Assembly: GCA_964016885.1 (NCBI GenBank)
Contig: OZ024743.1
Location: 73,346,001 to 73,410,000, forward strand
Direction of reading: 5' to 3'
DNA length: 64,000 nucleotides
Source of the DNA: Eledone cirrhosa
Lineage: Eukaryota
A program made the position numbers and the translations under genes. The notes under the pieces were generated by a model, which was not told the DNA's origin, ran no database searches, and saw only the letters and a list, made by a program, of their open reading frames with translations. Within the stretch, counting starts at the first letter, position 1, and every line of letters starts with the position of its first letter. This document shows positions 13,835-62,613 of this stretch, piece by piece.

Positions 13835-16800
13835 TCATTTATTGGCCACAAAGGGCCGACATATAGGGGACAATACAGAAAACTGGGACAGTGGGGTTTT
13901 ACAGAAAAATCGAGTAAACAATATGAATAACAATAACAAAGTAACAAGAAAATTACAAGAAAAAAAAACCCAATAGGGGGGATGACCACCCAGGGTTCGC
14001 TCAGATACCCCACCAATCCTGAACGACCCGACGCTTCGAGAGCACCCTGGAAGGGCGTCCCTCACCTCCTCAAATTTACCTACCTACAGCCGCATGACCA
14101 GAGTAGGCCCACTCACACGGACCATTCTCACCACATTCATCCACCTTTCAGCTAATATACTGGGGGGCAGCACTTCTCTCTCCACCCGCACCTTCCTTTC
14201 CAAGTGAAACTTGAAAAAGTTGATGAGGGATTGGCCGAAGAGAAAAGTGTCTGTCTTCAGTCCTTTCAACCTCGTCCACCATACAACCTCTTTCGCTACT
14301 GCCACCAGACAGAGGAAAATTGCCTGCCCTTCCTGGCCAAAAGAAGGCGGCGGGTCGATCTTCACTATGGACTCGGCCGATAGCCGGATCCATTATACAC
14401 GCGACAAAAACTGTTCAACATAACTCCACATGTCAGTAATGCACGGACACTGGACGAGTGCGTGCAGAACGGTTTCGTCGCTCTGCGCGCATCTCGGGCA
14501 GGTCCGTCTGACAGCACTTCCGTGCCTGTAGAGTTTATCTCGAACCGGCAGTGCCCCCCGGTAGTACTGCCAAGCGAGGGATAATTGGAAATTATCCATT
14601 GTCCCCGGCTCGAAAGTCCTTTGGTACAGACTGGTTAGTTCGACTTCGTTGACTCCCTGAGCCTCTCCGAGTGCGTCGTCGCACTTGCCCACCACTATTC
14701 CTCTATAGAACTCGAGAGTGGAAGTTCCACTGACCGCATTGCCCGCCTGGTAGAGGGCAGTGAGTGCCTGGCAACATTCTAGATGCCAGTCACCCAGTCT
14801 AGGTCTCTACTTGACCCAGGACTGCAGCTCAGTCAAAGAAACGAGCTGCGGAAAGGCCCGTCTGACAAACGGCGACCACACCTGTTCACCGTTTAGGCAG
14901 ACTATCTGGAGATGCCGCAGCCTCAGCGTGTGCCTGCGCATCATTAGCCACGGCATGCCCAGCCGTCCACGTAGAGGGTGCTGGCAGCAGATGGACCGCC
15001 TCACCAGCGGAACCTGACCCCTCCACAAGAATTTGAAGAGGAGCCGCTCCAAGATGGCGAGGCGAGAACGGGGGCAAGGGACGACGGTCAGACGGTAGTA
15101 GATGACGGACGCGATGTACGCGTGGGCCACCTCCGCCCGACCTTTCAGTGATAGCTTCATCCCAGCCCATTTCTGGGTGAGACTGGCTACCCTGCCCGTC
15201 ACCTCGTCCCAATTCTTATCCATCTGGAGGTCTGGCCCGAACCAAACCCCGAGCAACTTTACCGGTCTGTCTGTCCAGCGCCTAACGACGGTGTTGGACG
15301 GCATGGCCTTGCCTCTCCAGGTGCCGAATTGCAAGCCCACCGACTTTTCCGGGTTAAGTTTTGTTCCCGTAAACCTTTCATATACCTCCAATAAGTTGCC
15401 GACCACCTCGATTTCTGAGGTGTCCGACACCATAACAGTGATGTCGTCCGCATAAGCCTACACAGCCTTTCCGCGTCCCGGTTCGAGTGGGATGCCCTGC
15501 AACAGCTCCAGCTTTCGCAGTAAAGGCTCGAGAGTCAATACGTACAGAAGGGAGGAGAGAGGGCACCCTTGACGGACCGATCGGGAGACCTGAAAGGGTT
15601 CCGAGAGGTGGCCATTAATTTTGACCATCGAGCAGGTGCCGCTGTGAATTGCAGCGATCCAGCTTCTGAAGACAGGGCCGAAACCAGCCGCCTTGAGGAC
15701 AGTCTCCAGGTACCGATGGTCGACCCTATCGAATGCTTTCGATTGATCTAAGTTGATCAGAGCACCACCGAAGCCAGGTTTACAGGCTACCCTCTCTATG
15801 ATGTATCGCATTAGGTGGAGGTTGTCGTGTATGGACCTGGTTGGGATTGCGCAAGTTTGCGCCTCCCCAACCAAATCTTCGACGACAAGCGCCAACCTCT
15901 TCGCTAACACCATGGCCAAAATCTTAAATTCTGTGTTGGGCAGAGTTATGGGCCTGAAATTGTCTAATGTGTTCCTCTTGTTCTCGTCTTTCCTTATCAG
16001 CGTCACTACACCCCTGCTCACAGAACTGGGAATACTCCCGTTTTGCTGCCAGTTGCAGTAGACGCTTCGTGGAGATTGGAGCACAAGTCTGGCATATTTA
16101 CGTAAAGCTCGTAGGGCAAACCATCCAATCCGGGTGACTTGCGCCTCATGCAGCCGACAAGGGCATCCTGAATCTCGGCTGAAGTAATTGGCCTTTCGCA
16201 GCACCCAGCGTCAGCCGTCGAGAGTTGCGGCAAGCCATCGAGGTAGGGACTGAAGTCCGCACACCATCTCTGACCCGCCACTTTCCCCGAACAACCGGGC
16301 AAAATGTTGGCGAAAGGCCTCACACATAGCTCTGACTATGCAACCTTCGTGTTTCGCATTGAAGAAATGGTCTAATGCCATTCTCGCCGCTAGCATATCA
16401 GTTGCAATGCCACTACCAATAGCCTCGTCTAACTTATCTACCAACTCACCCTCCTTTCTAGTTTTCTCTAACGCTACTACTTTGCTAAACTCTATCGACA
16501 TTACTCTAATCTCTCTTTTGAGAAATTAGAGTAATCCTGGTCTCGCTGACTGCAATTACATCTATTTCTATAGACCTCATGTCGTTTACCAGGTGACCCT
16601 GCTTCCAGGACGATCCCAGGCCTCGAATATTTAAACATCCTACTCTTAATACGGCCATGTTGGCAGGTTAAACAAAGAGAGAGGAAGGTTTACTTACCTT
16701 CTGGGCTCTTGTGAAGGTCGGGTTGTTCGACCTCCATAGTTAGTGGTGTTTCTTTTGGGAACCCCTTTAAAAGTCTTGAAGTGGGTTTTACGTTCGGGGT

Positions 16801-31579: not shown

Positions 31580-31614
<35 letters not shown>

Positions 31615-31739
31615 GAAAAGAGTCAGGACCACGATGGGTGAGCTCCGGCCGTTTCGACAGCTCAGCCGTCGGGGTCCTGACTCTTTTCCTATTAACCACT
31701 CTACTACCCTAATTATTGAGTACTCTGGTGCGTATATAA

Positions 31740-31769: not shown

Positions 31770-31776
<7 letters not shown>

Positions 31777-32037
31777 GTGAGTTTTTTTTTACAAAATGAA
31801 AAATAACCGAGGTGTCCTACACGAGTGGAAGTATAAAGAAAAAGGGATGAAATCGAAAATGCAACTGAAGTCTTATTTTTTTTAAAATATATATATTTAT
31901 TTGGTTCCTTTACCGGTTTCGCAGTTCTTCTGCTTTTCAAAAGGTGAGTTGAGATGGAGGGTCTGTGGTTTTTCTCACATCTGGTTGGTCTCTAAATGTT
32001 ACTTGTTTTATATGGAAAAACTGGCTCGAAAACCAGG

Positions 32038-32042
<5 letters not shown>
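31770..32042 (-). mobile_element. PLE-terminus-like repeat with a variant HHR core (other copies at 48060-48520 and 57017-57560)
   Basis: Three homologous copies next to (TA)n; cctt-TTGAAAA-gcag aagaa ctgc-GAAA-ccgg-TA-aagg at 31907-31944. Confidence 0.55.
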
Positions 32043-32088
<46 letters not shown>

Positions 32089-32095
<7 letters not shown>

Positions 32096-34417
32096 CAAAT
32101 AACGAAACGAAATTAAATTTCGTTTCGTTTGTAACTCACTTTTGTATGACTGACGCTTAAACAATTAAGTTAAAAATGTACATCCACATATGTATACTGA
32201 AATACTAGTATGCATATGAATACACACACGTATACATATGTAGATGTACCGAGTTTTTCACTGGTCACTTTACTGTGAGTGTCCAGCTATTCTGTATGTA
32301 AACACACAGACAAACCGGTTTTTAGAGTCATACTGGTTTTTGAGGAAACACCTTTCCTCTATTCTCCAGAAAGCCAGACAAGGAATATTGAACTAGTTTC
32401 GATGTTGTTACATCTCATCAGCAATATTTACCTATCTTCCGGCCTCTCTAGAGAATCGTAAAAGCACATATCGTTATATGCTTTTTCTATGAAAATTAGT
32501 AGTGGGCAGACTAATTTGCATAGAGCGTGAGTGCGTACCGGTTCAACGGAGACGATAAAAACAAATAACGAAACGAAATTAAATTTCGTTTCGTTTGTAA
32601 CTCACTTTTGTATGACTGACGCTTAAACAATTAAGTTAAAAATGTACATCCACATATGTATACTGAAATACTAGTATGCATATGAATACACACACGTATA
32701 CATATGTAGATGTACCGAGTTTTTCACTGGTCACTTTACTGTGAGTGTCCAGCTATTCTGTATGTAAACACACAGACAAACCGGTTTTTAGAGTCATACT
32801 GGTTTTTGAGGAAACACCTTTCCTCTATTCTCCAGAAAGCCAGACAAGGAATATTGAACTAGTTTCGATGTTGTTACATCTCATCAGCAATATTTACCTA
32901 TCTTCCGGCCTCTCTAGAGAATCGTAAAAGCACATATCGTTATATGCTTTTTCTATGAAAATTAGTAGTGGGCAGACTAATTTGCATAGAGCGTGAGTGC
33001 GTACCGGTTCAACTTAATTGTTTAAGCGTCAGTCATACAAAAGTGAGTTACAAACGAAACGAAATTTAATTTCGTTTCGTTATTTGTTTTTATCGTCTCC
33101 GTTGAACCGGTACGCACTCACGCTCTATGCAAATTAGTCTGCCCACTACTAATTTTCATAGAAAAAGCATATAACGATATGTGCTTTTACGATTCTCTAG
33201 AGAGGCCGGAAGATAGGTAAATATTGCTGATGAGATGTAACAACATCGAAACTAGTTCAATATTCCTTGTCTGGCTTTCTGGAGAATAGAGGAAAGGTGT
33301 TTCCTCAAAAACCAGTATGACTCTAAAAACCGGTTTGTCTGTGTGTTTACATACAGAATAGCTGGACACTCACAGTAAAGTGACCAGTGAAAAACTCGGT
33401 ACATCTACATATGTATACGTGTGTGTATTCATATGCATACTAGTATTTCAGTATACATATGTGGATGTACATTTTTAACTTAATTGTTTAAGCGTCAGTC
33501 ATACAAAAGTGAGTTACAAACGAAACGAAATTTAATTTCGTTTCGTTATTTGTTTTTATCGTCTCCGTTGAACCGGTACGCACTCACGCTCTATGCAAAT
33601 TAGTCTGCCCACTACTAATTTTCATAGAAAAAGCATATAACGATATGTGCTTTTACGATTCTCTAGAGAGGCCGGAAGATAGGTAAATATTGCTGATGAG
33701 ATGTAACAACATCGAAACTAGTTCAATATTCCTTGTCTGGCTTTCTGGAGAATAGAGGAAAGGTGTTTCCTCAAAAACCAGTATGACTCTAAAAACCGGT
33801 TTGTCTGTGTGTTTACATACAGAATAGCTGGACACTCACAGTAAAGTGACCAGTGAAAAACTCGGTACATCTACATATGTATACGTGTGTGTATTCATAT
33901 GCATACTAGTATTTCAGTATACATATGTGGATGTACATTTTTAACTTAATTGTTTAAGCGTCAGTCATACAAAAGTGAGTTACAAACGAAACGAAATTTA
34001 ATTTCGTTTCGTTATTTGTTTTTATCGTCTCCGTTGAACCGGTACGCACTCACGCTCTATGCAAATTAGTCTGCCCACTACTAATTTTCATAGAAAAAGC
34101 ATATAACGATATGTGCTTTTACGATTCTCTAGAGAGGCCGGAAGATAGGTAAATATTGCTGATGAGATGTAACAACATCGAAACTAGTTCAATATTCCTT
34201 GTCTGGCTTTCTGGAGAATAGAGGAAAGGTGTTTCCTCAAAAACCAGTATGACTCTAAAAACCGGTTTGTCTGTGTGTTTACATACAGAATAGCTGGACA
34301 CTCACAGTAAAGTGACCAGTGAAAAACTCGGTACATCTACATATGTATACGTGTGTGTATTCATATGCATACTAGTATTTCAGTATACATATGTGGATGT
34401 ACATTTTTAACTTAATT

Positions 34418-34422
<5 letters not shown>
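32089..34422. mobile_element. Retrozyme-like tandem array A: 466-bp unit, ~2 units (HHR on -) plus ~3 inverted units (HHR on +)
   Basis: 466-bp periodicity with no differences seen; inversion junction at 33011-33013 (aac microhomology); (TA)n on both sides; one HHR per unit. Confidence 0.88.
33220..33264 (+). ncRNA. Type I HHR of array A (also 33686-33730 and 34152-34196 on +; 32384-32428 and 32850-32894 on -)
   Basis: aatattg-CTGATGA-gatgt aaca acatc-GAAA-ctag-TT-caatatt; palindromic minimal stem III ACTAGT. Confidence 0.9.
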
Positions 34423-34477
<55 letters not shown>

Positions 34478-37319: not shown

Positions 37320-37893
37320 GGCGATGAATTAGTTTTGCGAGGTTTTTTATATGAAATTGTGTGTCGAAACAGATATTGTTATATTTGGGGAGGGTCATAT
37401 TTGCGTAATATTGCCAGAATTAATAACAGAACACACTCACTGTTTGGTTGGTTTTCGCTTCTCGCTGTCTTTTATATATATATATCTGCGATCTAACTTA
37501 CTCGGTCCTCAATGTTGCCATTGACTGACCGGCGGTCAAAAATAATACAGATACAATATAGACAAACACATATATATATAGTTTACATAAATCTTTCGTT
37601 GCACATCTGCAACATCGTCAGTGGTGTTATATTCATTGTTCCTCCTGTTGTGTTGTATGTCTACGCCATTTTTTTTGTTCAGTCTGTCTATATATTTATT
37701 TATTTATTTGCTTGTTTGTTTATCTTATTTTATTTTGTCTTCTTTGCGCATGCGTTTGCGTGTGTGTATAGTGTTATGTGTGATGTGTGACTAGTGTGTA
37801 TAGTGTTGTGTCTGCTGGGTGACTAGTGTGTGTTTATGTGCTTGTGTATGTATTTATTTATCTTATTTTATTTAATTTAATTTACTTATTTAT

Positions 37894-40800
37894 TTATACT
37901 TCTCTTAGGTCAGTGTTGTTTGTTTGGGTGTTGTTGTTGTTCCACTCATTCTTTCTGTTTAGCTTTGGTCTTCTAATTTCTATTTCACTGGCCTCTCTGA
38001 TTTGCCTATCTGCTGGGTCATTCCTATGTTTAGATATTATTCTAATTTCTATGTTGTCTATGTTACCGTCATGATGTTGTCTAGCATGTTCGTATAGTAC
38101 TGACCCGTTTTTTCGTCCTTTTAGTTCCCCCCAGTGTTGGTCTATCCTTTCACCTATGCTACGAGCTGTCTCACCTATGTATGTTGTTGTCGTGTTTCTG
38201 CAAGTACCCTCTGTACATCTTATGCTATAGACTACGTTTCTAGTTTTACAGTTTATCCGGGGGTTCACCTTACATATGATACATTTCCTATTGGTACAGT
38301 GGGTTTTCTTAAAAGGGTAGGTTTTGCTGATCAGGGATTTTATGGTGGTTCCTGGCTTTTCTACCACCTTTATTTTTAAGTGGGTCTTTCTCAGGGCCTT
38401 TCTACACTGGTTAGCTAATTTCCCTCCAGGGGTGGCGTCCACAAACATGACACTCTGATATCTCTGGTTGTCGTACCATGATGTGGCCTTCCCTATCTTA
38501 TGTCTAGCCCTATCTAAGCTATTCCATGATTTGCTCCTGTATAGTGGGCAAATTCCTTTCATGTCCAGTTCTATGAGGGTCTTATACTTTTCTATGGCTC
38601 CTTCGTATACTCTGACTCTGTCTCTTTGGTTGTAGCCAGAGAACTGCATGCAGTTGATGAAGTGTTGGATGTGTCCTTCCATTTCTGTTGGGTCGCACAT
38701 GCTGGACACATTCTTCATCACTCGTACCAAATCTGCGATCAGAATATTAAACTTAGCACTACTGGACATTGCTGAGTTTTTGAGTATCAGGTATTTGGAG
38801 GCCATGGGTTTCGCATAGTGTGAGTGGAGAATTTGGGCTCTCTCGTCTATAGTGTTAATCCAGAGTTCTGTGTCTAATACAGGTAGTCTATTGTTAGGGT
38901 GTTTGGAAGGGAAGTCTATAGTTACAGTTATACTCTGGTGTATGGAATTAGCTATCTGCTGGATGCTTTCCATCGTGCTACGTTCTAAATCAAACTTGCT
39001 AGTGCTCTCTAGTGGGGGTGTTCTTATAACTATATTGATATCGTCTACATAACGAGAGTACATGATGAGGTCTATGGAGCTTTCATTAAGGAGATCTTTA
39101 AGTCTCCTTTCCCACCATACCATGAAAAGGTTGGCAACATCGCCAGCTATGCTGACGCCGATGGCTGCTCCCTCATTTTGGGTGTAGATTTTCTCATTGA
39201 ACTTAAATATGTGGCTCTTTAGGGTAGTTTTGATACTAGCCCCTATTGCATGTGCGACCATTTTTCTTACCTGATCAGTGTTTTGGGGGGTCCGTATAGC
39301 TTTGGTCCACCCAATCCACCTTCCTATGGGAGTCTTTTTAGCCATTGAGGTTATGGTGGGGGGTCTACCTCTTATAGGTCTACTAGGGCAGAAACATCTA
39401 AGGTCATGGCTGTCTAGGTAGTCAGTGTCGTAGGTAAGTCTAAGTAGGAGGCCCAGTTCGTCTGTGTCGACGTCGCAGAACTCCACCTCACTCTCAATGA
39501 TCATCTCCACACATCTTTTCACAGCAAAATCAATGTTAATGGATGGGTACAGTGACACCACATCCATGCTGCCTATTATGCAGTTGGATAGGCTCCTGTT
39601 TTTGTTGCACTCACTGATTCTGCTGAGGAGGTCCTCTGTACTTTCACATACATCTGGGGACATCTTGATTATGGGGCGTATAACCATTGAGAGGAAGTAG
39701 GAGATCCTGTAGTTGCTAGCTATATTAGCTCCGCATACAGGTCTTGTTGGTGGTCCTGTTGTCGGGTCGTCGACTGTCTTGTGGTCTTTGCGGAGCCCAT
39801 ACAAGGGTGGTATGCCATTGTTAGACGCCTGGAAGTTGTTGGCAGTGCGTCTGCTTGGCTTTAGGATGTCAGTCCACATCATCATGTGAGCGTTGAGGAT
39901 TTTTTCTCTCCCATCGTGTGTTAGTTGTGCAACTTCGCTCGTGTTGGTGATGTGGGGTTGCATTGCCTCGATGTAGTTCGGCATGCTATCTATTGACATC
40001 CTACCAGACTTATCTGTGGGTAGACACACTACCTCACCATCCCTTGTGCGCTGCTTGAGGCTAACCAAGCCTTCTACAGGTTTTATCCCAAGTTGTTGGG
40101 CCTCTGGTCTGCTCTGTCTCATAGTGTACCTGTCTACTACTTGTCTAATCTTATTTCTAGCTATGGTGAACTGTGCCTCCGTCTCGTCATCTATTTGTTG
40201 TGGTATGCAAACTCTTTTATTAAAGGGTAACCTCGTAGGATAGATATTACCCATCTTATATGTTTTGTCAGCTGGGTTGAAAAATAGTTTCTCTAAGGGG
40301 TTGTCGTTATTTCTATCGTCATAGTTGTGTGTGTTGCTATTATTATTATCATGGTGGTTGTTGTTGTTTCTATCATTAGCATTAATATTATTATTGTTAT
40401 GATTGCTAGATGTATTGTTGTTTACTTCACCGTTATTGTTGTTGTTGTTACTGCTATTTCTACCATTGTGGTTGTTACTATTATTATGTTTCTTGTTTTT
40501 GTTGATGTTGCTACATGTACTATTTCCATTATTACCACTGGGGTTATTGTTGTTGTTGTTGTTCGTATTGTTACCGTTATTACTACTGTGGTCACTGTTG
40601 CTGTGTCTGTGGTTAACGTTTCTATTATTATTATTATTGTGGTTGTTGTTGTTCTGTCTATCGCTAGTATTATTACCATTATCACTATTTCTCACTTTCC
40701 TGCCATTGTTATGGTTATGGCTGTTATTTCTATACCCAGAGTTATTGTTTATATTACTACTACCGTTATTATTGTTGTTGTTGTTTACCTTTGCATTCCA

Positions 40801-41163
40801 ACGTATTTTTGTGAAACACTTTTCCAGCTCCGTTTTGCATTCCATAGTGTTAATCTTTTTGTAGATGGCAAATTTTGGTGGTAACTTTAGGATTTGTTGT
40901 TCTTGTTCACTGATTAAAGTGTTCCCATAGATATTTACTGTGTGGTCATTGGTAAATTCTTCCGGTAGTTTTACATCACTCATACGGATGTTGTCGATGT
41001 TATCTGGGTATTTTTGAGAATATTCGATTTTCCTTTCTTGTAGTTTTTTCTTATTCATCCATTCTAATTTCTTCTTGAAATGCCTACAGCATTCGTTTTG
41101 AGCATATTTCGTTTCGCGTCGGATGACGCTCATGAAGTCATCTCTCTCGTTTGCTGTGATGAG
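37894..41163 (-). CDS. PLE polyprotein (RT + C-terminal GIY-YIG), 5'-truncated, uninterrupted
   Basis: PTDKSG, LYGLRKDHK, GSMDVVSLYPSI, QNEGAAIG, RYVDD, LPVLD; C..C..C linker; NVVYSIRC..C..YIGETARS..ER..QH; LNRKNEW. Confidence 0.93.
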   Translation of the reverse strand, partial: LITANERDDFMSVIRRETKYAQNECCRHFKKKLEWMNKKKLQERKIEYSQKYPDNIDNIRMSDVKLPEEFTNDHTVNIYGNTLISEQEQQILKLPPKFAIYKKINTMECKTELEKCFTKIRWNAKVNNNNNNNGSSNINNNSGYRNNSHNHNNGRKVRNSDNGNNTSDRQNNNNHNNNNNRNVNHRHSNSDHSSNNGNNTNNNNNNNPSGNNGNSTCSNINKNKKHNNSNNHNGRNSSNNNNNNGEVNNNTSSNHNNNNINANDRNNNNHHDNNNSNTHNYDDRNNDNPLEKLFFNPADKTYKMGNIYPTRLPFNKRVCIPQQIDDETEAQFTIARNKIRQVVDRYTMRQSRPEAQQLGIKPVEGLVSLKQRTRDGEVVCLPTDKSGRMSIDSMPNYIEAMQPHITNTSEVAQLTHDGREKILNAHMMMWTDILKPSRRTANNFQASNNGIPPLYGLRKDHKTVDDPTTGPPTRPVCGANIASNYRISYFLSMVIRPIIKMSPDVCESTEDLLSRISECNKNRSLSNCIIGSMDVVSLYPSINIDFAVKRCVEMIIESEVEFCDVDTDELGLLLRLTYDTDYLDSHDLRCFCPSRPIRGRPPTITSMAKKTPIGRWIGWTKAIRTPQNTDQVRKMVAHAIGASIKTTLKSHIFKFNEKIYTQNEGAAIGVSIAGDVANLFMVWWERRLKDLLNESSIDLIMYSRYVDDINIVIRTPPLESTSKFDLERSTMESIQQIANSIHQSITVTIDFPSKHPNNRLPVLDTELWINTIDERAQILHSHYAKPMASKYLILKNSAMSSSAKFNILIADLVRVMKNVSSMCDPTEMEGHIQHFINCMQFSGYNQRDRVRVYEGAIEKYKTLIELDMKGICPLYRSKSWNSLDRARHKIGKATSWYDNQRYQSVMFVDATPGGKLANQCRKALRKTHLKIKVVEKPGTTIKSLISKTYPFKKTHCTNRKCIICKVNPRINCKTRNVVYSIRCTEGTCRNTTTTYIGETARSIGERIDQHWGELKGRKNGSVLYEHARQHHDGNIDNIEIRIISKHRNDPADRQIREASEIEIRRPKLNRKNEWNNNNTQTNNTDLREV

Positions 41164-41164
41164 A

Positions 41165-44092
41165 AAGTGTTTCACAAAAATACGTTGGAATGCAAAGGTA
41201 AACAACAACAACAATAATAACGGTAGTAGTAATATAAACAATAACTCTGGGTATAGAAATAACAGCCATAACCATAACAATGGCAGGAAAGTGAGAAATA
41301 GTGATAATGGTAATAATACTAGCGATAGACAGAACAACAACAACCACAATAATAATAATAATAGAAACGTTAACCACAGACACAGCAACAGTGACCACAG
41401 TAGTAATAACGGTAACAATACGAACAACAACAACAACAATAACCACAGTGGTAATAATGGAAATAGTACATGTAGCAACATCAACAAAAACAAGAAACAT
41501 AATAATAGTAACAACCACAATGGTAGAAATAGCAGTAACAACAACAACAATAACGGTGAAGTAAACAACAATACATCTAGCAATCATAACAATAATAATA
41601 TTAATGCTAATGATAGAAACAACAACAACCACCATGATAATAATAATAGCAACACACACAACTATGACGATAGAAATAATGACAACCCCTTAGAGAAACT
41701 ATTTTTCAACCCAGCTGACAAAACATATAAGATGGGTAATATCTATCCTACGAGGTTACCCTTTAATAAAAGAGTTTGCATACCACAACAAATAGATGAC
41801 GAGACGGAGGCACAGTTCACCATAGCTAGAAATAAGATTAGACAAGTAGTAGACAGGTACACTATGAGACAGAGCAGACCAGAGGCCCAACAACTTGGGA
41901 TAAAACCTGTAGAAGGCTTGGTTAGCCTCAAGCAGCGCACAAGGGATGGTGAGGTAGTGTGTCTACCCACAGATAAGTCTGGTAGGATGTCAATAGATAG
42001 CATGCCGAACTACATCGAGGCAATGCAACCCCACATCACCAACACGAGCGAAGTTGCACAACTAACACACGATGGGAGAGAAAAAATCCTCAACGCTCAC
42101 ATGATGATGTGGACTGACATCCTAAAGCCAAGCAGACGCACTGCCAACAACTTCCAGGCGTCTAACAATGGCATACCACCCTTGTATGGGCTCCGCAAAG
42201 ACCACAAGACAGTCGACGACCCGACAACAGGACCACCAACAAGACCTGTATGCGGAGCTAATATAGCTAGCAACTACAGGATCTCCTACTTCCTCTCAAT
42301 GGTTATACGCCCCATAATCAAGATGTCCCCAGATGTATGTGAAAGTACAGAGGACCTCCTCAGCAGAATCAGTGAGTGCAACAAAAACAGGAGCCTATCC
42401 AACTGCATAATAGGCAGCATGGATGTGGTGTCACTGTACCCATCCATTAACATTGATTTTGCTGTGAAAAGATGTGTGGAGATGATCATTGAGAGTGAGG
42501 TGGAGTTCTGCGACGTCGACACAGACGAACTGGGCCTCCTACTTAGACTTACCTACGACACTGACTACCTAGACAGCCATGACCTTAGATGTTTCTGCCC
42601 TAGTAGACCTATAAGAGGTAGACCCCCCACCATAACCTCAATGGCTAAAAAGACTCCCATAGGAAGGTGGATTGGGTGGACCAAAGCTATACGGACCCCC
42701 CAAAACACTGATCAGGTAAGAAAAATGGTCGCACATGCAATAGGGGCTAGTATCAAAACTACCCTAAAGGGCCACATATTTAAGTTCAATGAGAAAATCT
42801 ACACCCAAAATGAGGGAGCAGCCATCGGCGTCAGCATAGCTGGCGATGTTGCCAACCTTTTCATGGTATGGTGGGAAAGGAGACTTAAAGATCTCCTTAA
42901 TGAAAGCTCCATAGACCTCATCATGTACTCTCGTTATGTAGACGATATCAATATAGTTATAAGAACACCCCCACTAGAGAGCACTAACAAGTTTGATTTA
43001 GAACGTAGCACGATGGAAAGCATCCAGCAGATAGCTAATTCCATACACCAGAGTATAACTGTAACTATAGACTTCCCTTCCAAACACCCTAACAATAGAC
43101 TACCTGTATTAGACACAGAACTCTGGATTAACACTATAGTCGAGAGAGCCCAAATTCTCCACTCACACTATGCTAAACCCATGGCCTCCAAATACCTGAT
43201 ACTCAAAAACTCAGCAATGTCCAGTAGTGCTAAGTTTAATATTCTGATCGCAGATTTGGTACGAGTGATGAAGAATGTGTCCAGCATGTGCGACCCAACA
43301 GAAATGGAAGGACACATCCAACACTTCATCAACCGCATGCAGTTCTCTGGCTACAACCAAAGAGACAGAGTCAGAGTATACGAAGGAGCCATGGAAAAGT
43401 ATAAGACCCTCATAGAACTGGACATGAAAGGAATTTGCCCACTATACAGGAGCAAATCATGGAATAGCTTAGATAGGGCTAGACATAAGATAGGGAAGGC
43501 CACATCATGGTACGACAACCAGAGATATCAGAGTGTCATGTTTGTGGACGCCACCCCTGGAGGGAAATTAGCTAACCAGTGTAGAAAGGCCCTGAGAAAG
43601 ACCCACTTAAAAATAAAGGTGGTAGAAAAGCCAGGAACCACCATAAAATCCCTGATCAGCAAAACCTACCCTTTTAAGAAAACCCACTGTACCAATAGGA
43701 AATGTATCATATGTAAGGTGAACCCCCGGATAAACTGTAAAACTAGTAACGTAGTCTATAGCATAAGATGTACAGAGGGTACTTGCAGAAACACGACAAC
43801 AACATACATAGGTGAGACAGCTCGTAGCATAGGTGAAAGGATAGACCAACACTGGGGGGAACTAAAAGGACGAAAAAACGGGTCAGTACTATACGAACAT
43901 GCTAGACAACATCATGACGGTAACATAGACAACATAGAAATTAGAATAATATCTAAACATAGGAATGACCCAGCAGATAGGCAAATCAGAGAGGCCAGTG
44001 AAATAGAAATTAGAAGACCAAAGCTAAACAGAAAGAATGAGTGGAACAACAACAACACCCAAACAAACAACACTGACCTAAGAGAAGTATAA
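41165..44092 (+). CDS. PLE polyprotein, second (inverted) copy, 5'-truncated, uninterrupted
   Basis: Same motifs; 7 amino-acid differences from the left copy by manual comparison. Confidence 0.93.
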   Translation, partial: KCFTKIRWNAKVNNNNNNNGSSNINNNSGYRNNSHNHNNGRKVRNSDNGNNTSDRQNNNNHNNNNNRNVNHRHSNSDHSSNNGNNTNNNNNNNHSGNNGNSTCSNINKNKKHNNSNNHNGRNSSNNNNNNGEVNNNTSSNHNNNNINANDRNNNNHHDNNNSNTHNYDDRNNDNPLEKLFFNPADKTYKMGNIYPTRLPFNKRVCIPQQIDDETEAQFTIARNKIRQVVDRYTMRQSRPEAQQLGIKPVEGLVSLKQRTRDGEVVCLPTDKSGRMSIDSMPNYIEAMQPHITNTSEVAQLTHDGREKILNAHMMMWTDILKPSRRTANNFQASNNGIPPLYGLRKDHKTVDDPTTGPPTRPVCGANIASNYRISYFLSMVIRPIIKMSPDVCESTEDLLSRISECNKNRSLSNCIIGSMDVVSLYPSINIDFAVKRCVEMIIESEVEFCDVDTDELGLLLRLTYDTDYLDSHDLRCFCPSRPIRGRPPTITSMAKKTPIGRWIGWTKAIRTPQNTDQVRKMVAHAIGASIKTTLKGHIFKFNEKIYTQNEGAAIGVSIAGDVANLFMVWWERRLKDLLNESSIDLIMYSRYVDDINIVIRTPPLESTNKFDLERSTMESIQQIANSIHQSITVTIDFPSKHPNNRLPVLDTELWINTIVERAQILHSHYAKPMASKYLILKNSAMSSSAKFNILIADLVRVMKNVSSMCDPTEMEGHIQHFINRMQFSGYNQRDRVRVYEGAMEKYKTLIELDMKGICPLYRSKSWNSLDRARHKIGKATSWYDNQRYQSVMFVDATPGGKLANQCRKALRKTHLKIKVVEKPGTTIKSLISKTYPFKKTHCTNRKCIICKVNPRINCKTSNVVYSIRCTEGTCRNTTTTYIGETARSIGERIDQHWGELKGRKNGSVLYEHARQHHDGNIDNIEIRIISKHRNDPADRQIREASEIEIRRPKLNRKNEWNNNNTQTNNTDLREV

Positions 44093-44362
44093 ATAAATAA
44101 GTAAATTAAATTAAATAAAATAAGATAAATAAATACATACACAAGCACATAAACACACACTAGTCACCCAGCAGACACAACACTATACACACTAGTCACA
44201 CATCACACATAACACTATACACACACGCAAACGCATGCGCAAAGAAGACAAAATAAAATAAGATAAACAAACAAGCAAATAAATAAATAAATATATAGAC
44301 AGACTGAACAAAAAAAATGGCGTAGACATACAACACAACAGGAGGAACAATGAATATAACAC

Positions 44363-44400
44363 CACTGACGATGTTGCAGATGTGCAACGAAAGATTTATG
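44363..44400 (+). ncRNA. HHR-like motif in the PLE 3' region (mirror copy 37586-37623 on -)
   Basis: ca-CTGACGA-t-gttgca gatg tgcaac-GAAA-gatt-TA-tg; stem I weak, but layout matches the motif at 3933-3977. Confidence 0.45.
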
Positions 44401-44605
44401 TAAACTATATATATATGTGTTTGTCTATATTGTATCTGTATTATTTTTGACCGCCGGTCAGTCAATGGCAACATTGAGGACCGAGTAAGTTAGATCGCAG
44501 ATATATATATATAAAAGACAGCGAGAAGCGAAAACCAACCAAACAGTGAGTGTGTTCTGTTATTAATTCTGGCAATATTACGCAAATATGACCCTCCCCA
44601 AATAT

Positions 44606-44725
<120 letters not shown>

Positions 44726-45561: not shown

Positions 45562-45566
<5 letters not shown>

Positions 45567-47720
45567 GTAGGTACACAACAGTTAGTTCACCATACCGAGA
45601 ACAATTGTTTCACCTTCGCAGATCTTCAGCTCGGGATGTGTATGGTTATAGGAACAGGAAGGACAACCGTACGAACGCGCATGCGCAGAAACTCGGTCAC
45701 TTCACACAGGCAATACTAGACTGCGAAAGCTAACCCTATGGCCTACCACGACATTAATACAGAAGCCAAGGAACTCGCCACCGACCTTAAGGTAGATAAG
45801 AAGCTACAATCTCTAGCTAAGCGGGAGGCGTTCCTCTCCCTGAAAGATCACAAAGTAGACTTTACTTCTAACCCCACATGTAGACTAATAAACCCGGCAC
45901 GCACAGATATGGGACTAGTCGGTAAGGCCATACTTAGAAACATAGTTAAGACCATTAGGACCAAGTCCAACCTGCCCCAGTGGGAGAACAGCGACTCCGT
46001 CATTAAGTGGTTTAACTCCTTAAAATCCAAAAAAGCGAAGTTCACAGTTTGACATTGTCGATTTTTACCCGTCGATCTCAGAGACCCTGTTAAACAAAGC
46101 GTTGGACTTCACTACCACTTATACCACCGTCGATGGTTTAGACAGGGAAATGATCGCTCACTGCCGGAAAACCCTCCTCTTCAACGACGGAGTAGCCTGG
46201 GCAAAGAAGTCTACATATTCAGACCTGTTCGACGTCTCCATGGGATCGTTTGACAGTGCTGACGTATGCGAATTGGTTGGCCTTTTTATCTTAGAAATAT
46301 TACGTGTTAGATTCCCGGACTTCCAAACGGGAATATACCGTGACGATGGACTGACTTTATCGAGCCATAAAAGTGGTCACGACCTCGACCGGTTTAAAAA
46401 AGACTTAGCTTCTACTTTCAATGAGTTAGACCTTAGGATAACAGTAGCCACCAACCTCTCTAGCGTAGATTTCTTAGACATTAATTTAGACCATCGCACA
46501 CACACCCACAGACCCTTCCATAAGCTAAACGAGAAACTTAATTACATTCACAAGGACTCATGCCACCCTCCCACTGCTTTTAGAAACTTCGTTAAGAATA
46601 TCAGTACTAGAATCTCAAACCTCTCCTCTAATAAGGCTATCTTTGACAGGGCGGCACCCTACTATAACACGGCGTTGGCTAACAGCGGCTTCTCACAACC
46701 TATCAGCTACTCTCCCACTAGCAACAACACCATTAAGAAAAGTAAGTGCATCAATAGACAAACTATCTGGTTCTCTCCTCCCTTCTCACTCAACGTTAAA
46801 ACCAATGTAGGAAAAAAATTTCTAGCCCTCTTAGATAGACACTTCCCCATAGGTCATAAATACCGCTCCATCTTTAACCGACACAAAGTTAAACTACGAT
46901 ACTCCTGCATGAAGGCCCACATCACCAGCAGCCCTAGGAGCATCACCCCACTAGGGTGCTCTTGCCGTAAGCCTGAAGCTCGCCCCCTTCAACAGCAATG
47001 CAACACACCAGCTGTAATCTATGAAGCTGTGGTCACTTCCAACCGACCAAAGGAACCACAGTAGGTCAAATCCTATGTGGGCATGGTGGAGGGCCGATTC
47101 AAGGAGCGTTTCCTGAACCACCAGTCTACCTTCAGATACTCGGACAGACGTTCATCCACGAAACTCGCGAGTCACGTATGGTCCCTCAAGGACTCAAGTA
47201 TAGGCTACTCCATTCAATGGAAAGCCATCACTAAGTCCAAGCCATACGCAAGGGGAAATCCGACGTGTGGCTTATGTATTGACGAACGAATAACTATCCT
47301 AAAGAGATTACGCAATAGTGATTGCCTAAACACGAGAAGTGAATTTTTCACACGTTGTCCACACGTCACCAAATATCTATTGCATAACTACAAGGCTCCG
47401 GACTGATTCTTTGTAATTTTAATTGTTTTATTTTATTTTCAACCTAAAAACTTTCCGGAGTTTCGCATTTATCTCCCTTACACCTCCCGCACGCAGTCTA
47501 GTATTGCCTGTGTGAAGTGACTGAGTTTCTGCGCATGCTCGTTCGTACGGTTGTCCTTCCTGTTCCTATAACCATACACATCCCGAGCTGAAGATCCGCA
47601 ATGGTGAAACAATTGTTCTCGGTATGGTGAACTAACTGTTGTGTAACCACTTCTACCTAACTCGTCCCTTGGACTGAGTGCTCTACCACTACGGATATTA
47701 CCGTCCAGTGTTCCACCACT
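45562..47720 (+). mobile_element. 5'-truncated PLE (second family) with an inverted upstream pLTR (45562-45725); frameshifted RT + GIY-YIG
   Basis: LKDHK..CRLINP, DIVDFYPSI, FDVSMGSFD, YRDDGL, DFLD, WFSPPFS, VIY..YVG, CGLC, CPH; 45562-45725 is the reverse complement of 47492-47655; TA flanks. Confidence 0.92.
47583..47622 (+). ncRNA. Type I HHR in pLTR (mirror copy 45595-45634 on -)
   Basis: ccgag-CTGAAGA-tccgcaatggt-GAAA-caattg-TT-ctcgg. Confidence 0.8.
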
Positions 47721-48059: not shown

Positions 48060-48520
48060 TCCGAGGCAATTTATGGTGCAAGAGAGTGGACTAAAAAAAT
48101 GTGTATTTTTCTTGACCATTATCGTTTGTTTTGTAGAAAACTTTCTATAACTCACCATCCTTTTCTGGCACATACATTATATGTCCAATCATTTAACTGT
48201 GAAAATGGCAATAAAGAACCCTCAAAACTGGCGCGATGTACCTATTCACGTGACAGTCATCAACCAACCAATTTATTTTAATAATAACCCCCACCATTTC
48301 GAGCCACTCTTTTCACATAAAACAGAAAGAACTTTCAAAGACAAACCAGGTGCGAGACAAACCACAAACCCTCCATCTCAATTCTACTTTTTAAAAGCAT
48401 AAGAACTGTAAAACTGGTAAAGTAAATAAATGAATATTATCAAAAAGACTCCAGTTGCATTTTCGATTTCTTTTCATTATACTTTCACCGGTGTAGGACA
48501 TATCGTTTTTTATTTTAAAA
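48060..48520 (+). mobile_element. Older copy of the 31770/57017 repeat family
   Basis: aaaccacaaaccctccatctcaa..gactccagttgcattttcgatttc is reverse-complement similar to those copies. Confidence 0.6.
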
Positions 48521-49994: not shown

Positions 49995-50194
49995 AGGGAG
50001 TGTGGTAAAGAACCAGGTAGACCAGAGTACTCGATACTTTGGGTAGTAGAGTGGGTAATAGGAAAAGGTTCAAGACCCCGACTGCAGAGCTCAACCCGTT
50101 TCGACAGCTATTTCTGGACTACTGGACTACTTCAGGAGTCCAGAAATAGCCGTCGAAACGGCTTGAGCTCTGCTGCCGTGGTCCTGAACCTTTT

Positions 50195-50245: not shown

Positions 50246-50250
<5 letters not shown>

Positions 50251-50374
50251 TTGAAAAAAATGAAAACGAAATTTCATTTCTCACTCTTAGTATGGCACTT
50301 ACTTAAATGTAAGTATGTATGTATACGTACATACATATATGTATACAGACGTACAGTAGCATGCATATATATAC

Positions 50375-50425
<51 letters not shown>

Positions 50426-50888
50426 CATATACATATATACATACAGGTACACATACATATATGCACGCATCAGTTTAGCGGACGTTTATTACAACGCCGC
50501 TTTGTTCGTTTGTTTGTCAACAAACCGAACAGCCTGAATTTATGCCATACGGTGTTAAGGCAACCGCGTCACCTTTTTGTTCAACACTGACACAGGAACG
50601 ATGTACTAGTTTCAAGCTTGTTAGCTATCATCAGCACCGTTTACCCATCTGCCAGATAGTTGAACGTTCGAAAGTATATACTTTCCTTATGAAAATTAAC
50701 GGCTGAGCAGCCTAATTTGCATATTGAGTGAGTTAAATCGGTCAGGCATACCGAAAACGATAAGTTGAAAAAAATGAAAACGAAATTTCATTTCTCACTC
50801 TTAGTATGGCACTTACTTAAATGTAAGTATGTATGTATACGTACATACATATATGTATACAGACGTACAGTAGCATGCATATATATAC

Positions 50889-50939
<51 letters not shown>

Positions 50940-51402
50940 CATATACATATATACATACAGGTACACATACATATATGCACGCATCAGTTTAGCGGACGTT
51001 TATTACAACGCCGCTTTGTTCGTTTGTTTGTCAACAAACCGAACAGCCTGAATTTATGCCATACGGTGTTAAGGCAACCGCGTCACCTTTTTGTTCAACA
51101 CTGACACAGGAACGATGTACTAGTTTCAAGCTTGTTAGCTATCATCAGCACCGTTTACCCATCTGCCAGATAGTTGAACGTTCGAAAGTATATACTTTCC
51201 TTATGAAAATTAACGGCTGAGCAGCCTAATTTGCATATTGAGTGAGTTAAATCGGTCAGGCATACCGAAAACGATAAGTTGAAAAAAATGAAAACGAAAT
51301 TTCATTTCTCACTCTTAGTATGGCACTTACTTAAATGTAAGTATGTATGTATACGTACATACATATATGTATACAGACGTACAGTAGCATGCATATATAT
51401 AC

Positions 51403-51453
<51 letters not shown>

Positions 51454-51916
51454 CATATACATATATACATACAGGTACACATACATATATGCACGCATCA
51501 GTTTAGCGGACGTTTATTACAACGCCGCTTTGTTCGTTTGTTTGTCAACAAACCGAACAGCCTGAATTTATGCCATACGGTGTTAAGGCAACCGCGTCAC
51601 CTTTTTGTTCAACACTGACACAGGAACGATGTACTAGTTTCAAGCTTGTTAGCTATCATCAGCACCGTTTACCCATCTGCCAGATAGTTGAACGTTCGAA
51701 AGTATATACTTTCCTTATGAAAATTAACGGCTGAGCAGCCTAATTTGCATATTGAGTGAGTTAAATCGGTCAGGCATACCGAAAACGATAAGTTGAAAAA
51801 AATGAAAACGAAATTTCATTTCTCACTCTTAGTATGGCACTTACTTAAATGTAAGTATGTATGTATACGTACATACATATATGTATACAGACGTACAGTA
51901 GCATGCATATATATAC

Positions 51917-51967
<51 letters not shown>

Positions 51968-52430
51968 CATATACATATATACATACAGGTACACATACAT
52001 ATATGCACGCATCAGTTTAGCGGACGTTTATTACAACGCCGCTTTGTTCGTTTGTTTGTCAACAAACCGAACAGCCTGAATTTATGCCATACGGTGTTAA
52101 GGCAACCGCGTCACCTTTTTGTTCAACACTGACACAGGAACGATGTACTAGTTTCAAGCTTGTTAGCTATCATCAGCACCGTTTACCCATCTGCCAGATA
52201 GTTGAACGTTCGAAAGTATATACTTTCCTTATGAAAATTAACGGCTGAGCAGCCTAATTTGCATATTGAGTGAGTTAAATCGGTCAGGCATACCGAAAAC
52301 GATAAGTTGAAAAAAATGAAAACGAAATTTCATTTCTCACTCTTAGTATGGCACTTACTTAAATGTAAGTATGTATGTATACGTACATACATATATGTAT
52401 ACAGACGTACAGTAGCATGCATATATATAC

Positions 52431-52481
<51 letters not shown>

Positions 52482-52944
52482 CATATACATATATACATAC
52501 AGGTACACATACATATATGCACGCATCAGTTTAGCGGACGTTTATTACAACGCCGCTTTGTTCGTTTGTTTGTCAACAAACCGAACAGCCTGAATTTATG
52601 CCATACGGTGTTAAGGCAACCGCGTCACCTTTTTGTTCAACACTGACACAGGAACGATGTACTAGTTTCAAGCTTGTTAGCTATCATCAGCACCGTTTAC
52701 CCATCTGCCAGATAGTTGAACGTTCGAAAGTATATACTTTCCTTATGAAAATTAACGGCTGAGCAGCCTAATTTGCATATTGAGTGAGTTAAATCGGTCA
52801 GGCATACCGAAAACGATAAGTTGAAAAAAATGAAAACGAAATTTCATTTCTCACTCTTAGTATGGCACTTACTTAAATGTAAGTATGTATGTATACGTAC
52901 ATACATATATGTATACAGACGTACAGTAGCATGCATATATATAC

Positions 52945-52995
<51 letters not shown>

Positions 52996-53458
52996 CATAT
53001 ACATATATACATACAGGTACACATACATATATGCACGCATCAGTTTAGCGGACGTTTATTACAACGCCGCTTTGTTCGTTTGTTTGTCAACAAACCGAAC
53101 AGCCTGAATTTATGCCATACGGTGTTAAGGCAACCGCGTCACCTTTTTGTTCAACACTGACACAGGAACGATGTACTAGTTTCAAGCTTGTTAGCTATCA
53201 TCAGCACCGTTTACCCATCTGCCAGATAGTTGAACGTTCGAAAGTATATACTTTCCTTATGAAAATTAACGGCTGAGCAGCCTAATTTGCATATTGAGTG
53301 AGTTAAATCGGTCAGGCATACCGAAAACGATAAGTTGAAAAAAATGAAAACGAAATTTCATTTCTCACTCTTAGTATGGCACTTACTTAAATGTAAGTAT
53401 GTATGTATACGTACATACATATATGTATACAGACGTACAGTAGCATGCATATATATAC

Positions 53459-53509
<51 letters not shown>

Positions 53510-53972
53510 CATATACATATATACATACAGGTACACATACATATATGCACGCATCAGTTTAGCGGACGTTTATTACAACGCCGCTTTGTTCGTTTGTTTG
53601 TCAACAAACCGAACAGCCTGAATTTATGCCATACGGTGTTAAGGCAACCGCGTCACCTTTTTGTTCAACACTGACACAGGAACGATGTACTAGTTTCAAG
53701 CTTGTTAGCTATCATCAGCACCGTTTACCCATCTGCCAGATAGTTGAACGTTCGAAAGTATATACTTTCCTTATGAAAATTAACGGCTGAGCAGCCTAAT
53801 TTGCATATTGAGTGAGTTAAATCGGTCAGGCATACCGAAAACGATAAGTTGAAAAAAATGAAAACGAAATTTCATTTCTCACTCTTAGTATGGCACTTAC
53901 TTAAATGTAAGTATGTATGTATACGTACATACATATATGTATACAGACGTACAGTAGCATGCATATATATAC

Positions 53973-54023
<51 letters not shown>

Positions 54024-54486
54024 CATATACATATATACATACAGGTACACATACATATATGCACGCATCAGTTTAGCGGACGTTTATTACAACGCCGCTT
54101 TGTTCGTTTGTTTGTCAACAAACCGAACAGCCTGAATTTATGCCATACGGTGTTAAGGCAACCGCGTCACCTTTTTGTTCAACACTGACACAGGAACGAT
54201 GTACTAGTTTCAAGCTTGTTAGCTATCATCAGCACCGTTTACCCATCTGCCAGATAGTTGAACGTTCGAAAGTATATACTTTCCTTATGAAAATTAACGG
54301 CTGAGCAGCCTAATTTGCATATTGAGTGAGTTAAATCGGTCAGGCATACCGAAAACGATAAGTTGAAAAAAATGAAAACGAAATTTCATTTCTCACTCTT
54401 AGTATGGCACTTACTTAAATGTAAGTATGTATGTATACGTACATACATATATGTATACAGACGTACAGTAGCATGCATATATATAC

Positions 54487-54537
<51 letters not shown>

Positions 54538-55000
54538 CATATACATATATACATACAGGTACACATACATATATGCACGCATCAGTTTAGCGGACGTTTA
54601 TTACAACGCCGCTTTGTTCGTTTGTTTGTCAACAAACCGAACAGCCTGAATTTATGCCATACGGTGTTAAGGCAACCGCGTCACCTTTTTGTTCAACACT
54701 GACACAGGAACGATGTACTAGTTTCAAGCTTGTTAGCTATCATCAGCACCGTTTACCCATCTGCCAGATAGTTGAACGTTCGAAAGTATATACTTTCCTT
54801 ATGAAAATTAACGGCTGAGCAGCCTAATTTGCATATTGAGTGAGTTAAATCGGTCAGGCATACCGAAAACGATAAGTTGAAAAAAATGAAAACGAAATTT
54901 CATTTCTCACTCTTAGTATGGCACTTACTTAAATGTAAGTATGTATGTATACGTACATACATATATGTATACAGACGTACAGTAGCATGCATATATATAC

Positions 55001-55051
<51 letters not shown>

Positions 55052-55514
55052 CATATACATATATACATACAGGTACACATACATATATGCACGCATCAGT
55101 TTAGCGGACGTTTATTACAACGCCGCTTTGTTCGTTTGTTTGTCAACAAACCGAACAGCCTGAATTTATGCCATACGGTGTTAAGGCAACCGCGTCACCT
55201 TTTTGTTCAACACTGACACAGGAACGATGTACTAGTTTCAAGCTTGTTAGCTATCATCAGCACCGTTTACCCATCTGCCAGATAGTTGAACGTTCGAAAG
55301 TATATACTTTCCTTATGAAAATTAACGGCTGAGCAGCCTAATTTGCATATTGAGTGAGTTAAATCGGTCAGGCATACCGAAAACGATAAGTTGAAAAAAA
55401 TGAAAACGAAATTTCATTTCTCACTCTTAGTATGGCACTTACTTAAATGTAAGTATGTATGTATACGTACATACATATATGTATACAGACGTACAGTAGC
55501 ATGCATATATATAC

Positions 55515-55565
<51 letters not shown>

Positions 55566-56361
55566 CATATACATATATACATACAGGTACACATACATAT
55601 ATGCACGCATCAGTTTAGCGGACGTTTATTACAACGCCGCTTTGTTCGTTTGTTTGTCAACAAACCGAACAGCCTGAATTTATGCCATACGGTGTTAAGG
55701 CAACCGCGTCACCTTTTTGTTCAAAACTGACACAGGAACGATGTACTAGTTTCAAGCTTGTTAGCTATCATCAGCACCGTTTACCCATCTGCCAGATAGT
55801 TGAACGTTCGAAAGTATATACTTTCCTTATGAAAATTAACGGCTGAGCAGCCTAATTTGCATATTGAGTGAGTTAAATCGGTCAGGCATACCGAAAACGA
55901 TAAGTTGAAAAAAATGAAAACGAAATTTCATTTCTCACTCTTAGTATGGCACTTACTTAAATGTAAGTATGTATGTGCCATACTAAGAGTGAGAAATGAA
56001 ATTTCGTTTTCATTTTTTTCAACTTATCGTTTTCGGTATGCCTGACCGATTTAACTCACTCAATATGCAAATTAGGCTGCTCAGCCGTTAATTTTCATAA
56101 GGAAAGTATATACTTTCGAACGTTCAACTATCTGGCAGATGGGTAAACGGTGCTGATGATAGCTAACAAGCTTGAAACTAGTACATCGTTCCTGTGTCAG
56201 TGTTGAACAAAAAGGTGACGCGGTTGCCTTAACACCGTATGGCATAAATTCAGGCTGTTCGGTTTGTTGACAAACAAACGAACAAAGCGGCGTTGTAATA
56301 AACGTCCGCTAAACTGATGCGTGCATATATGTATGTGTACCTGTATGTATATATGTATATG

Positions 56362-56412
<51 letters not shown>

Positions 56413-56875
56413 GTATATATATGCATGCTACTGTACGTCTGTATACATATATGTATGTACGTATACATACATACTTACATTTAAGTAAGTGCCATACTAA
56501 GAGTGAGAAATGAAATTTCGTTTTCATTTTTTTCAACTTATCGTTTTCGGTATGCCTGACCGATTTAACTCACTCAATATGCAAATTAGGCTGCTCAGCC
56601 GTTAATTTTCATAAGGAAAGTATATACTTTCGAACGTTCAACTATCTGGCAGATGGGTAAACGGTGCTGATGATAGCTAACAAGCTTGAAACTAGTACAT
56701 CGTTCCTGTGTCAGTGTTGAACAAAAAGGTGACGCGGTTGCCTTAACACCGTATGGCATAAATTCAGGCTGTTCGGTTTGTTGACAAACAAACGAACAAA
56801 GCGGCGTTGTAATAAACGTCCGCTAAACTGATGCGTGCATATATGTATGTGTACCTGTATGTATATATGTATATG

Positions 56876-56926
<51 letters not shown>

Positions 56927-56994
56927 GTATATATATGCATGCTACTGTACGTCTGTATACATATATGTATGTACGTATACATACATACTTACAT
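50246..56994. mobile_element. Retrozyme-like tandem array B: 514-bp unit, ~11.15 units (HHR on -) plus ~2 inverted units (HHR on +)
   Basis: 514-bp periodicity, also visible in the ORF track; inversion at 55975-55976 (gt microhomology); (TA)n on both sides. Confidence 0.9.
56146..56190 (+). ncRNA. Type I HHR of array B (also 56660-56704 on +; 50597-50641 + 514k, k=0..10, on -)
   Basis: aacggtg-CTGATGA-t agct aaca agct t-GAAA-ctag-TA-catcgtt. Confidence 0.85.

Positions 56995-57803: not shown

Positions 57804-61024
<3,221 letters not shown>

Positions 61025-61664: not shown

Positions 61665-61670
<6 letters not shown>
61030..61670. mobile_element. Rearranged copy of the 49993 family in (TA)n
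   Basis: Left end gtgtggtaag..accagagtac and right end agtccagaaatagccgtcgaaacggcttgagctctg are shared with 49993-50198. Confidence 0.5.

Positions 61671-62613
<943 letters not shown>

Follow-up and report, generated by a model that had tools for sequence, protein, structure and literature searches.

The 466-bp tandem array at positions 32089-34422 of a 64,000-nt stretch of Eledone cirrhosa DNA (contig OZ024743.1; the whole stretch is called the window here) is a single fresh insertion of a non-LTR retrozyme, a non-coding hammerhead repeat with dispersed copies. Its informative feature, which the first-pass annotation had not noticed, is a pair of fixed outer ends. The class is known; the anatomy of the insertion is undescribed and highly regular, ties the repeat to the biochemistry of Penelope-like elements (PLEs) and points to rolling-circle copying. 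We consider it probable that an ADAR-edited RNA circle was copied by rolling-circle reverse transcription, carried out by a PLE reverse transcriptase (RT)-endonuclease and primed at both (TA)n ends. Copying of a small RNA circle into TA repeats by a PLE enzyme is likely, a route that has been proposed and that we did not find shown in print. Our search of the accessible literature found nothing on cephalopod retrozymes, inverted two-site insertions or edited arrays.

The array consists of two arms in opposite orientation. The minus-strand arm (32089-33013) measures 925 nt or 1.98 units (2 x 466 - 7), and the plus-strand arm (33011-34422) measures 1412 nt or 3.03 units (3 x 466 + 14); the earlier reading of two units minus 7 nt and three units plus about 14 nt is thus exact to the base. 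No difference separates any of the units (100% identity). As had been described, the array lies inside (TA)n, with tracts at 32042-32091 on the left and 34421-34475 on the right. The first-pass annotation had placed an inversion at a 3-nt microhomology. The microhomology is present, as an AAC by which the arms overlap (33011-33013), but a better reading of the "inversion" is that each arm was primed on its own and that their inner break points were joined at random. With phases counted from the predicted hammerhead cut, the outer end of the minus arm lies at a site we call P1 (302 nt past the cleavage site) and its inner break at phase 310, while the outer end of the plus arm lies at a second site, P2 (phase 233), and its inner break at phase 220. 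In an internal plus-strand unit, P2 (phases 228-233) falls at 33485-33490, followed by a 13-bp hairpin (33518-33546) and then by P1 (33559). The 70 nt from P2 to P1 form the "tail". Another plus-strand hairpin (33590-33628) carries the octamer ATGCAAAT, is kept in both families described below and is a hot spot of array-wide A>G change.

A type I hammerhead was found in every tandem unit. The first plus-strand copy (33192-33287), recognized by its fold and by Rfam model HH9, has an extended stem I. The HH9 match (33209-33280; E 2.1e-7, 36.5 bits) scored under the gathering score of 52, and Rfam at gathering thresholds gave 0 matches across the 64-kb window. The core CUGAUGA (33227-33233) is followed by stem II (33234-33247) and GAAA (33248-33251). 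The 7-bp stem I (33220-33226 with 33258-33264), the UA bulge (33218-33219) and the long extension (33192-33287; fold z -4.7, with 0 of 200 shuffles as good) were all located as first reported, and so was the GUU (33255-33257) just before the predicted cut at 33257/33258. Helix III is the palindrome ACUAGU alone (33251-33256), of 1-2 bp, and a palindromic mini helix III of this kind would be the mark of the dimer-dependent hammerhead type. Such motifs perform poorly as monomers and cleave as dimers in tandem RNA (PMC4209133, PMC7229834); axolotl HHR_Amex1 has a like helix III, palindromic and dimer-dependent. Across about 80 loci none of the 16 core positions varied, compared to 88 of 450 positions elsewhere (p 0.033), and the cleavage base was only U or C. 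A compensatory A-U/U-A double change in stem II was seen at 27/58 loci and in 7/24 aligned units. Because the core is invariant, cleavage has probably been selected, which implies selection on the ribozyme.

The monomer from cut to cut (33258-33723, plus strand) is the predicted 466-nt circle. It has 36% GC and no ORF above 60 codons. Reading on around the circle did not lengthen the longest stop-free frame beyond 60 codons, and the idea of a coding circle was rejected. The predicted fold of the circle reached -158.8 kcal/mol (z -11 against 60 shuffles), and covariation over the whole circle was weak (3 double changes in 153 pairs; 55 of 500 shuffles did as well). One sequencing run yielded a lone 495-nt contig (465 + 30, closed on itself), which was set aside as evidence for circles, since a tandem DNA array gives the same; contigs were examined for four of six runs from three studies, none of them on record as RNA.

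With non-LTR retrozymes (PMC7229834; bioRxiv 10.64898/2026.07.22.740005) the element shares a small low-GC tandem unit, one type I hammerhead, the lack of an ORF, a highly self-paired predicted circle and co-occurrence with PLEs. Its 466 nt lie above the 170-400 nt given in PMC7229834 and within the 51-972 bp of bioRxiv 10.64898/2026.07.22.740005. The unit is short, low in GC and non-coding, without an apparent LTR-retrozyme layout, and dispersed mono-, di- and multimeric loci are all present. By every feature that could be tested, the sequence is that of a non-LTR retrozyme. The unit holds no RT + GIY-YIG ORF and is thus not an autonomous PLE, but it appears to insert like one. Newt satellite 2 is also built of tandem hammerhead units, which cleave in a dimer-dependent manner (PMC7229834). 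The accessible portions of the two animal retrozyme papers, both of which leave mobilization as a hypothesis, report no two-armed head-to-head insertions, no fixed priming sites, no (TA)n targeting and no A>G-marked arrays. In its accessible part, the preprint by Li, Clavereau and Pollet bases its case for a PLE origin on co-occurrence and on pLTR homology in vertebrates, with no account of insertion anatomy. In Xenopus, 24 of 57 families had a homologous annotated element; none was found for the 466-bp family.

The promoter of newt satellite 2 is of the octamer-containing snRNA type, although our literature search for this promoter did not find it. An essential snRNA-type promoter at the octamer of the 466-bp family was weakened as a candidate by A342G lineages that spread to at least three loci; in this family, unlike newt satellite 2, mutated-octamer lineages still spread.

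Searches of the 3.0-Gb genome showed that the monomer is not confined to a single locus. The exact 40-nt hammerhead core occurred in 947 copies (0 for the reversed control), and a hairpin motif common to both families gave 17,269 matches (reversed control 0). The P1 junction pattern (phase ~302 + TA repeat) gave 2,394 matches, with 95 distinct places among the 100 matches listed. The P2 junction pattern (phase 228-233 + TA repeat) is stricter, recovering 6 of the 22 P2 ends directly seen in the first P1-picked set; it gave 1,088 matches, with about 70 distinct places among the 100 listed. We estimate roughly 2,000 or more loci for the 466-bp family. A second array in the window (50246-56994), 16 kb away and built of 514-bp units, proved homologous (local score 105 against a shuffle maximum of 32) and follows the same two-site rule with P1 at 358 and P2 at 297. 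The ends of the two families fall at homologous positions, which bears out the proposal that the arrays are independent insertions of related families. The general mobile system proposed along with it is also borne out by the thousands of dispersed loci, although the class was already known, as non-LTR retrozymes, and already linked to PLEs.

An older third subfamily of about 430 nt is related to the 514-bp family and keeps the octamer hairpin, with its 3' strand changed, and the ACUAGU helix III. Some older long arrays have higher-order repeats of 6 and 9 units; DNA-level amplification follows later in old long arrays. Very long arrays of about 30 to 100 units, some with higher-order structure, were seen at C1:81.85-81.88 Mb, C1:5.74-5.75 Mb and C3:12.27-12.32 Mb.

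The ends of 117 distinct 466-bp insertions were tallied by hand. These loci had been found by similarity (14), by P1 (29), by P2 (14), by internal motifs (8) and, in a replication set of 53 P1-picked regions from which one duplicate was dropped, by P1 again (52). With 81 loci picked by P1 and 14 by P2, only the opposite end is informative at those loci. P1 on one arm was combined with P2 on the opposite arm at 88 of 117 loci, and at none of the 117 did the two arms share an end site. The combination was present at 50/65 loci of the first set, and the replication set, picked by P1 alone, had P2 at the other end in 38/52. P1 and P2 arms occur on either side, and each may be long or reduced to ~10 nt. 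The remaining 29 loci comprised 12 with a single arm, 10 with another second end, 3 with an ambiguous tiny arm, 1 apparent two-family chimera and 3 assigned to no pattern. The worst fit was among the eight motif-picked loci, chosen regardless of their ends and mostly older, with one clean P1 and P2 pair. In the 514-bp family, whose P1 pattern had 378 matches genome-wide, 30 P1-picked loci had P2 at the other end in 12 cases, P1 in none and nothing within 1.5 kb in 18. A perfect hairpin directly precedes P1 in both families. A suspected P1 and P1 pair at C1:26.56 Mb proved to be two insertions, and at a suspected same-site pair in the 514-bp family the arm simply continued.

The inner break points were spread over all phases. 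They were not enriched at the cleavage site (6/204 within 5 nt, 4.8 expected), and cut linear RNA has therefore left no genomic trace. Phases 1-25 held 18 of 204 breaks (p 0.03, post hoc), and 7 of 89 in the new set (p 0.20).

A target-site duplication, which in non-LTR retrozymes exceeds 4 bp when present, is not readable inside (TA)n. One 466-bp locus lies in (ATG)n/(CAT)n without TA, which favours target tracts that existed beforehand over TA flanks added by the insertion. At C1:58.7-59.3 kb, a two-armed insertion lies between (GAT)n and (CAT)n with no TA added, and occupies the centre of another inverted-repeat element. At C1:53.48 Mb, a 466-bp P2 arm adjoins 14 nt that match the 514-bp P1 end; this apparent chimera may be a single insertion for which two different RNAs were primed.

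Three PLE insertions in the window have the same build as the retrozyme: an inverted arm, a one-sided tail and TA flanks. The first, PLE1 (37320-44613), has an RT + GIY-YIG-type ORF and is 5'-truncated, with head-to-head arms 99.7% alike and a 53-nt tail on one arm only. The second (45562-47720) has a short inverted arm and a tail of ~65 nt, and the third (57852-60972) a 109-bp inverted arm and a tail of ~100 nt; all three lie in (TA)n. The inverted 5'-truncated copy, the one-sided tail and the (TA)n bias are described as PLE-specific and unexplained (PMC8557442). In vitro, a PLE protein cut AT-rich DNA on both strands and extended each of them; reverse transcription began at two internal sites, ~110-120 nt into the ORF region, which mark the limits of the genomic tail, and the protein is predicted to be a dimer (PMC11167929).

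Like endonuclease-bearing PLEs (PMC8557442, PMC11167929), the retrozyme has an adjoining copy that is inverted and 5'-truncated, a tail on one side, targets that are AT-rich or (TA)n, copies in tandem, and a stem-loop close to two internal RT start sites, with a hammerhead upstream of these sites. In the 466-bp family, the two internal start sites and one-ended tail are those of the 88/117 loci, and the inverted, 5'-truncated adjoining copy lies in a microsatellite target. Because its ends at two sites parallel the two PLE start sites, its tail is one-sided and its targets are AT-rich, the retrozyme carries the PLE fingerprint. There are differences: unlike these PLEs, the retrozyme lacks an RT or endonuclease ORF and has many complete units on both arms, and its tail is 60-70 nt instead of 30-40. 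The bulk data given in the accessible part of PMC11167929 showed no start-site difference between strands, whereas the retrozyme ends differ at 88/88 two-site loci.

PLE1 is our best candidate for the source of the enzyme, being young, abundant and TA-targeted, with a Cx4CxxC motif ahead of the nuclease in its translation. This motif has been hypothesized to mediate the microsatellite bias of Neptune elements (PMC8557442). The PLE1 family is the youngest of the three and gave 3,611 pattern matches genome-wide; a DNA similarity search with the PLE1 3' end returned no match. Nine of ten head-to-head PLE1 pairs had a tail on one side and none on the other, and the remaining pair, with tails on both ends, lies in a region that looks duplicated. 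The tail is located within the initial 30 codons of the ORF. Among named homologues of the PLE1 RT, the best is from Octopus vulgaris (68% identity). Pfam gave one weak GIY-YIG match and left two of the three PLE ORFs blank; the PLE assignment is made from translation motifs and from homologues carrying PF00078, PF26215 and PF28514. The retrozyme showed no similarity to the 3' ends of the three window PLEs, with scores within those of shuffles, and two exclusion patterns revealed no ORF-bearing relative, only an older relative of the 514-bp family. The PLE1 family has a long Asn-rich insert and occurs in seamless 4.15-kb tandem units (C1:14.38-14.40 Mb). Two adjacent PLE1 units share one frameshift, as if one defective RNA had been copied repeatedly.

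The two arms of a locus were closely alike. Median arm divergence was 0.6% within loci (36 loci) compared to 3.6% between loci (4,232 arm pairs); an arm's own partner was strictly the nearest at 16/36 loci and closer than the other-locus median at 36/36. Subfamilies were mixed between arms at none of 42 two-arm loci, and a rare allele was fixed in both arms at 36 of 66. Arms were longer than a linear cleaved monomer permits in 44/58 cases for P1 and 36/47 for P2. At C1:30.83 Mb all 18 complete units (12 and 6, on opposite arms) were identical, and the substitutions that set them apart from another locus's haplotype were A336G, A340G and A341G only. These fall within 6 nt of one stem and are present in all 19 copies of the segment, on both arms. 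In a second lineage five A>G changes were added and later another three; two of these sites were also changed on an unrelated background.

Rare alleles fixed array-wide (at five or fewer loci) comprised 26 A>G and 6 T>C, with 6 G>A and 8 C>T, whereas single-copy changes were symmetric (39:37; Fisher p 0.005 against the rare fixed alleles); the 26:6 count is post hoc, its threshold having been chosen afterwards. Alleles at one locus only gave 11 A>G and 4 T>C (p 0.07). As the test was first defined, on strictly private changes, A>G:T>C was 10:0 in the first set; this excess did not replicate in 53 new regions (3:3), and the pooled ratio was 9:3 (p 0.15). Clustered sense-strand A>G changes in duplex RNA are the signature of ADAR, and cephalopods have high ADAR activity; the bias could instead come from a polymerase. 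Because identical changes stand in every copy on both arms, the template is most simply explained as a single monomer copied many times, presumably a circle.

The main rival to a circular template is a linear one. The template for PLE two-site priming could have been a linear multimer, transcribed from a source array of homogeneous units and left uncut, with circles as a by-product and unequal crossover lengthening the arrays afterwards. We regard this as unlikely, though several results are consistent with it. Hammerhead cleavage was unnecessary for insertion in vitro, where unprocessed RNA was the dominant substrate (PMC11167929), cleavage was seen in one of nine Xenopus dimers (bioRxiv 10.64898/2026.07.22.740005), old arrays have higher-order repeats and PLE1 itself occurs in tandem units. 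A linear multimer would, however, be expected to be edited unit by unit, yet the three A>G changes at C1:30.83 Mb extend through every copy of both arms; the rare alleles common to both arms, at more than half of the two-arm loci, and the invariant core with the selected cleavage it implies also argue against it. A linear template would still require an earlier step from monomer to multimer.

Rolling-circle copying would proceed as follows. The hammerheads, dimerized through the palindromic helix III, would cut a tandem transcript, and a host ligase would close the 466-nt monomer into a circle that, alone, would cut poorly. Some A residues in the stems of the circle would then be edited by ADAR. 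By analogy with PLE biochemistry, the enzyme would cut both strands of (TA)n, and one DNA end would prime at P1 and the other at P2 through 1-3 nt of T/A microhomology. Each end would be extended separately; the sequences themselves show arm lengths that are independent, from ~10 nt to 15 units and more, and that cross the would-be ligation point, with inner ends joined head to head at unconstrained phases. The DNA-level higher-order duplications seen in older long arrays would be gained last.

Two further explanations dispense with a PLE enzyme. Another retroelement, such as a TA-targeting LINE with L1-type twin priming, might mobilize the RNA, the likeness to PLEs being coincidental. Window LINE-type RT ORFs, the absence of a window PLE sharing sequence with the retrozyme and the mention of LINEs among possible helpers (PMC7229834) are in its favour. 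The one-sided tail, however, is described as unique to PLEs (PMC8557442, PMC11167929), and the three window PLE insertions share the retrozyme build. Both outer ends of the retrozyme are internal fixed sites without poly(A) or a 3' tail. In L1 twin priming the second site varies, unlike the fixed second site of retrozyme insertions, and we judge a LINE helper very improbable. Least credible of all is a satellite or foldback element that spreads as DNA, through recombination or extrachromosomal circles, with the hammerhead as a passenger. This would suit the long arrays and their higher-order repeats but not the ~2,000 or more dispersed loci with common ends defined on the hammerhead strand, the strand-asymmetric A>G alleles, or the invariant catalytic core with its compensatory stem II pair.

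Rolling-circle copying by a PLE enzyme may be taken a step further, and here we put the chances at about even. The family may record the full life cycle of a retrozyme, in which a dimeric Penelope enzyme takes up one ADAR-edited circle, each active site engages a different start site and rolls out one arm, and edits enter the genome and accumulate over generations; the rule of one site for each end would then explain the PLE tail generally. If true, a viroid-like genomic parasite owes its evolution to RNA editing as a driving force.

By what route animal retrozymes move, and whether they use the circle as template, are described as open questions (PMC7229834; bioRxiv 10.64898/2026.07.22.740005), as is the way in which PLEs produce tandem and inverted insertions (PMC8557442). 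The 466-bp family offers thousands of young insertions of a 466-nt template, with two start sites already mapped and with edits that serve as natural barcodes, and both questions become directly testable by giving a small circular RNA to the published in vitro PLE assay. There would be technical interest, too, in an RT able to travel round a circle and lay down concatemers in (TA)n from each of the two DNA ends.

Other elements were seen in the window. A short element with a hammerhead-like core on the minus strand abuts TA tracts at 31771-32041, 48295-48500 and 57031-57215, and also lies beside both arrays and many other loci; it probably represents a further PLE-type 3' end that is nested in these tracts. 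At 1604-2548 and 14807-16210 there are fragments of LINE-type reverse transcriptase ORFs. A short inverted-repeat (hairpin) element with (TA)n flanks occurs at 31612-31690, 50021-50121 and 61611-61672 and recurs beside other loci.
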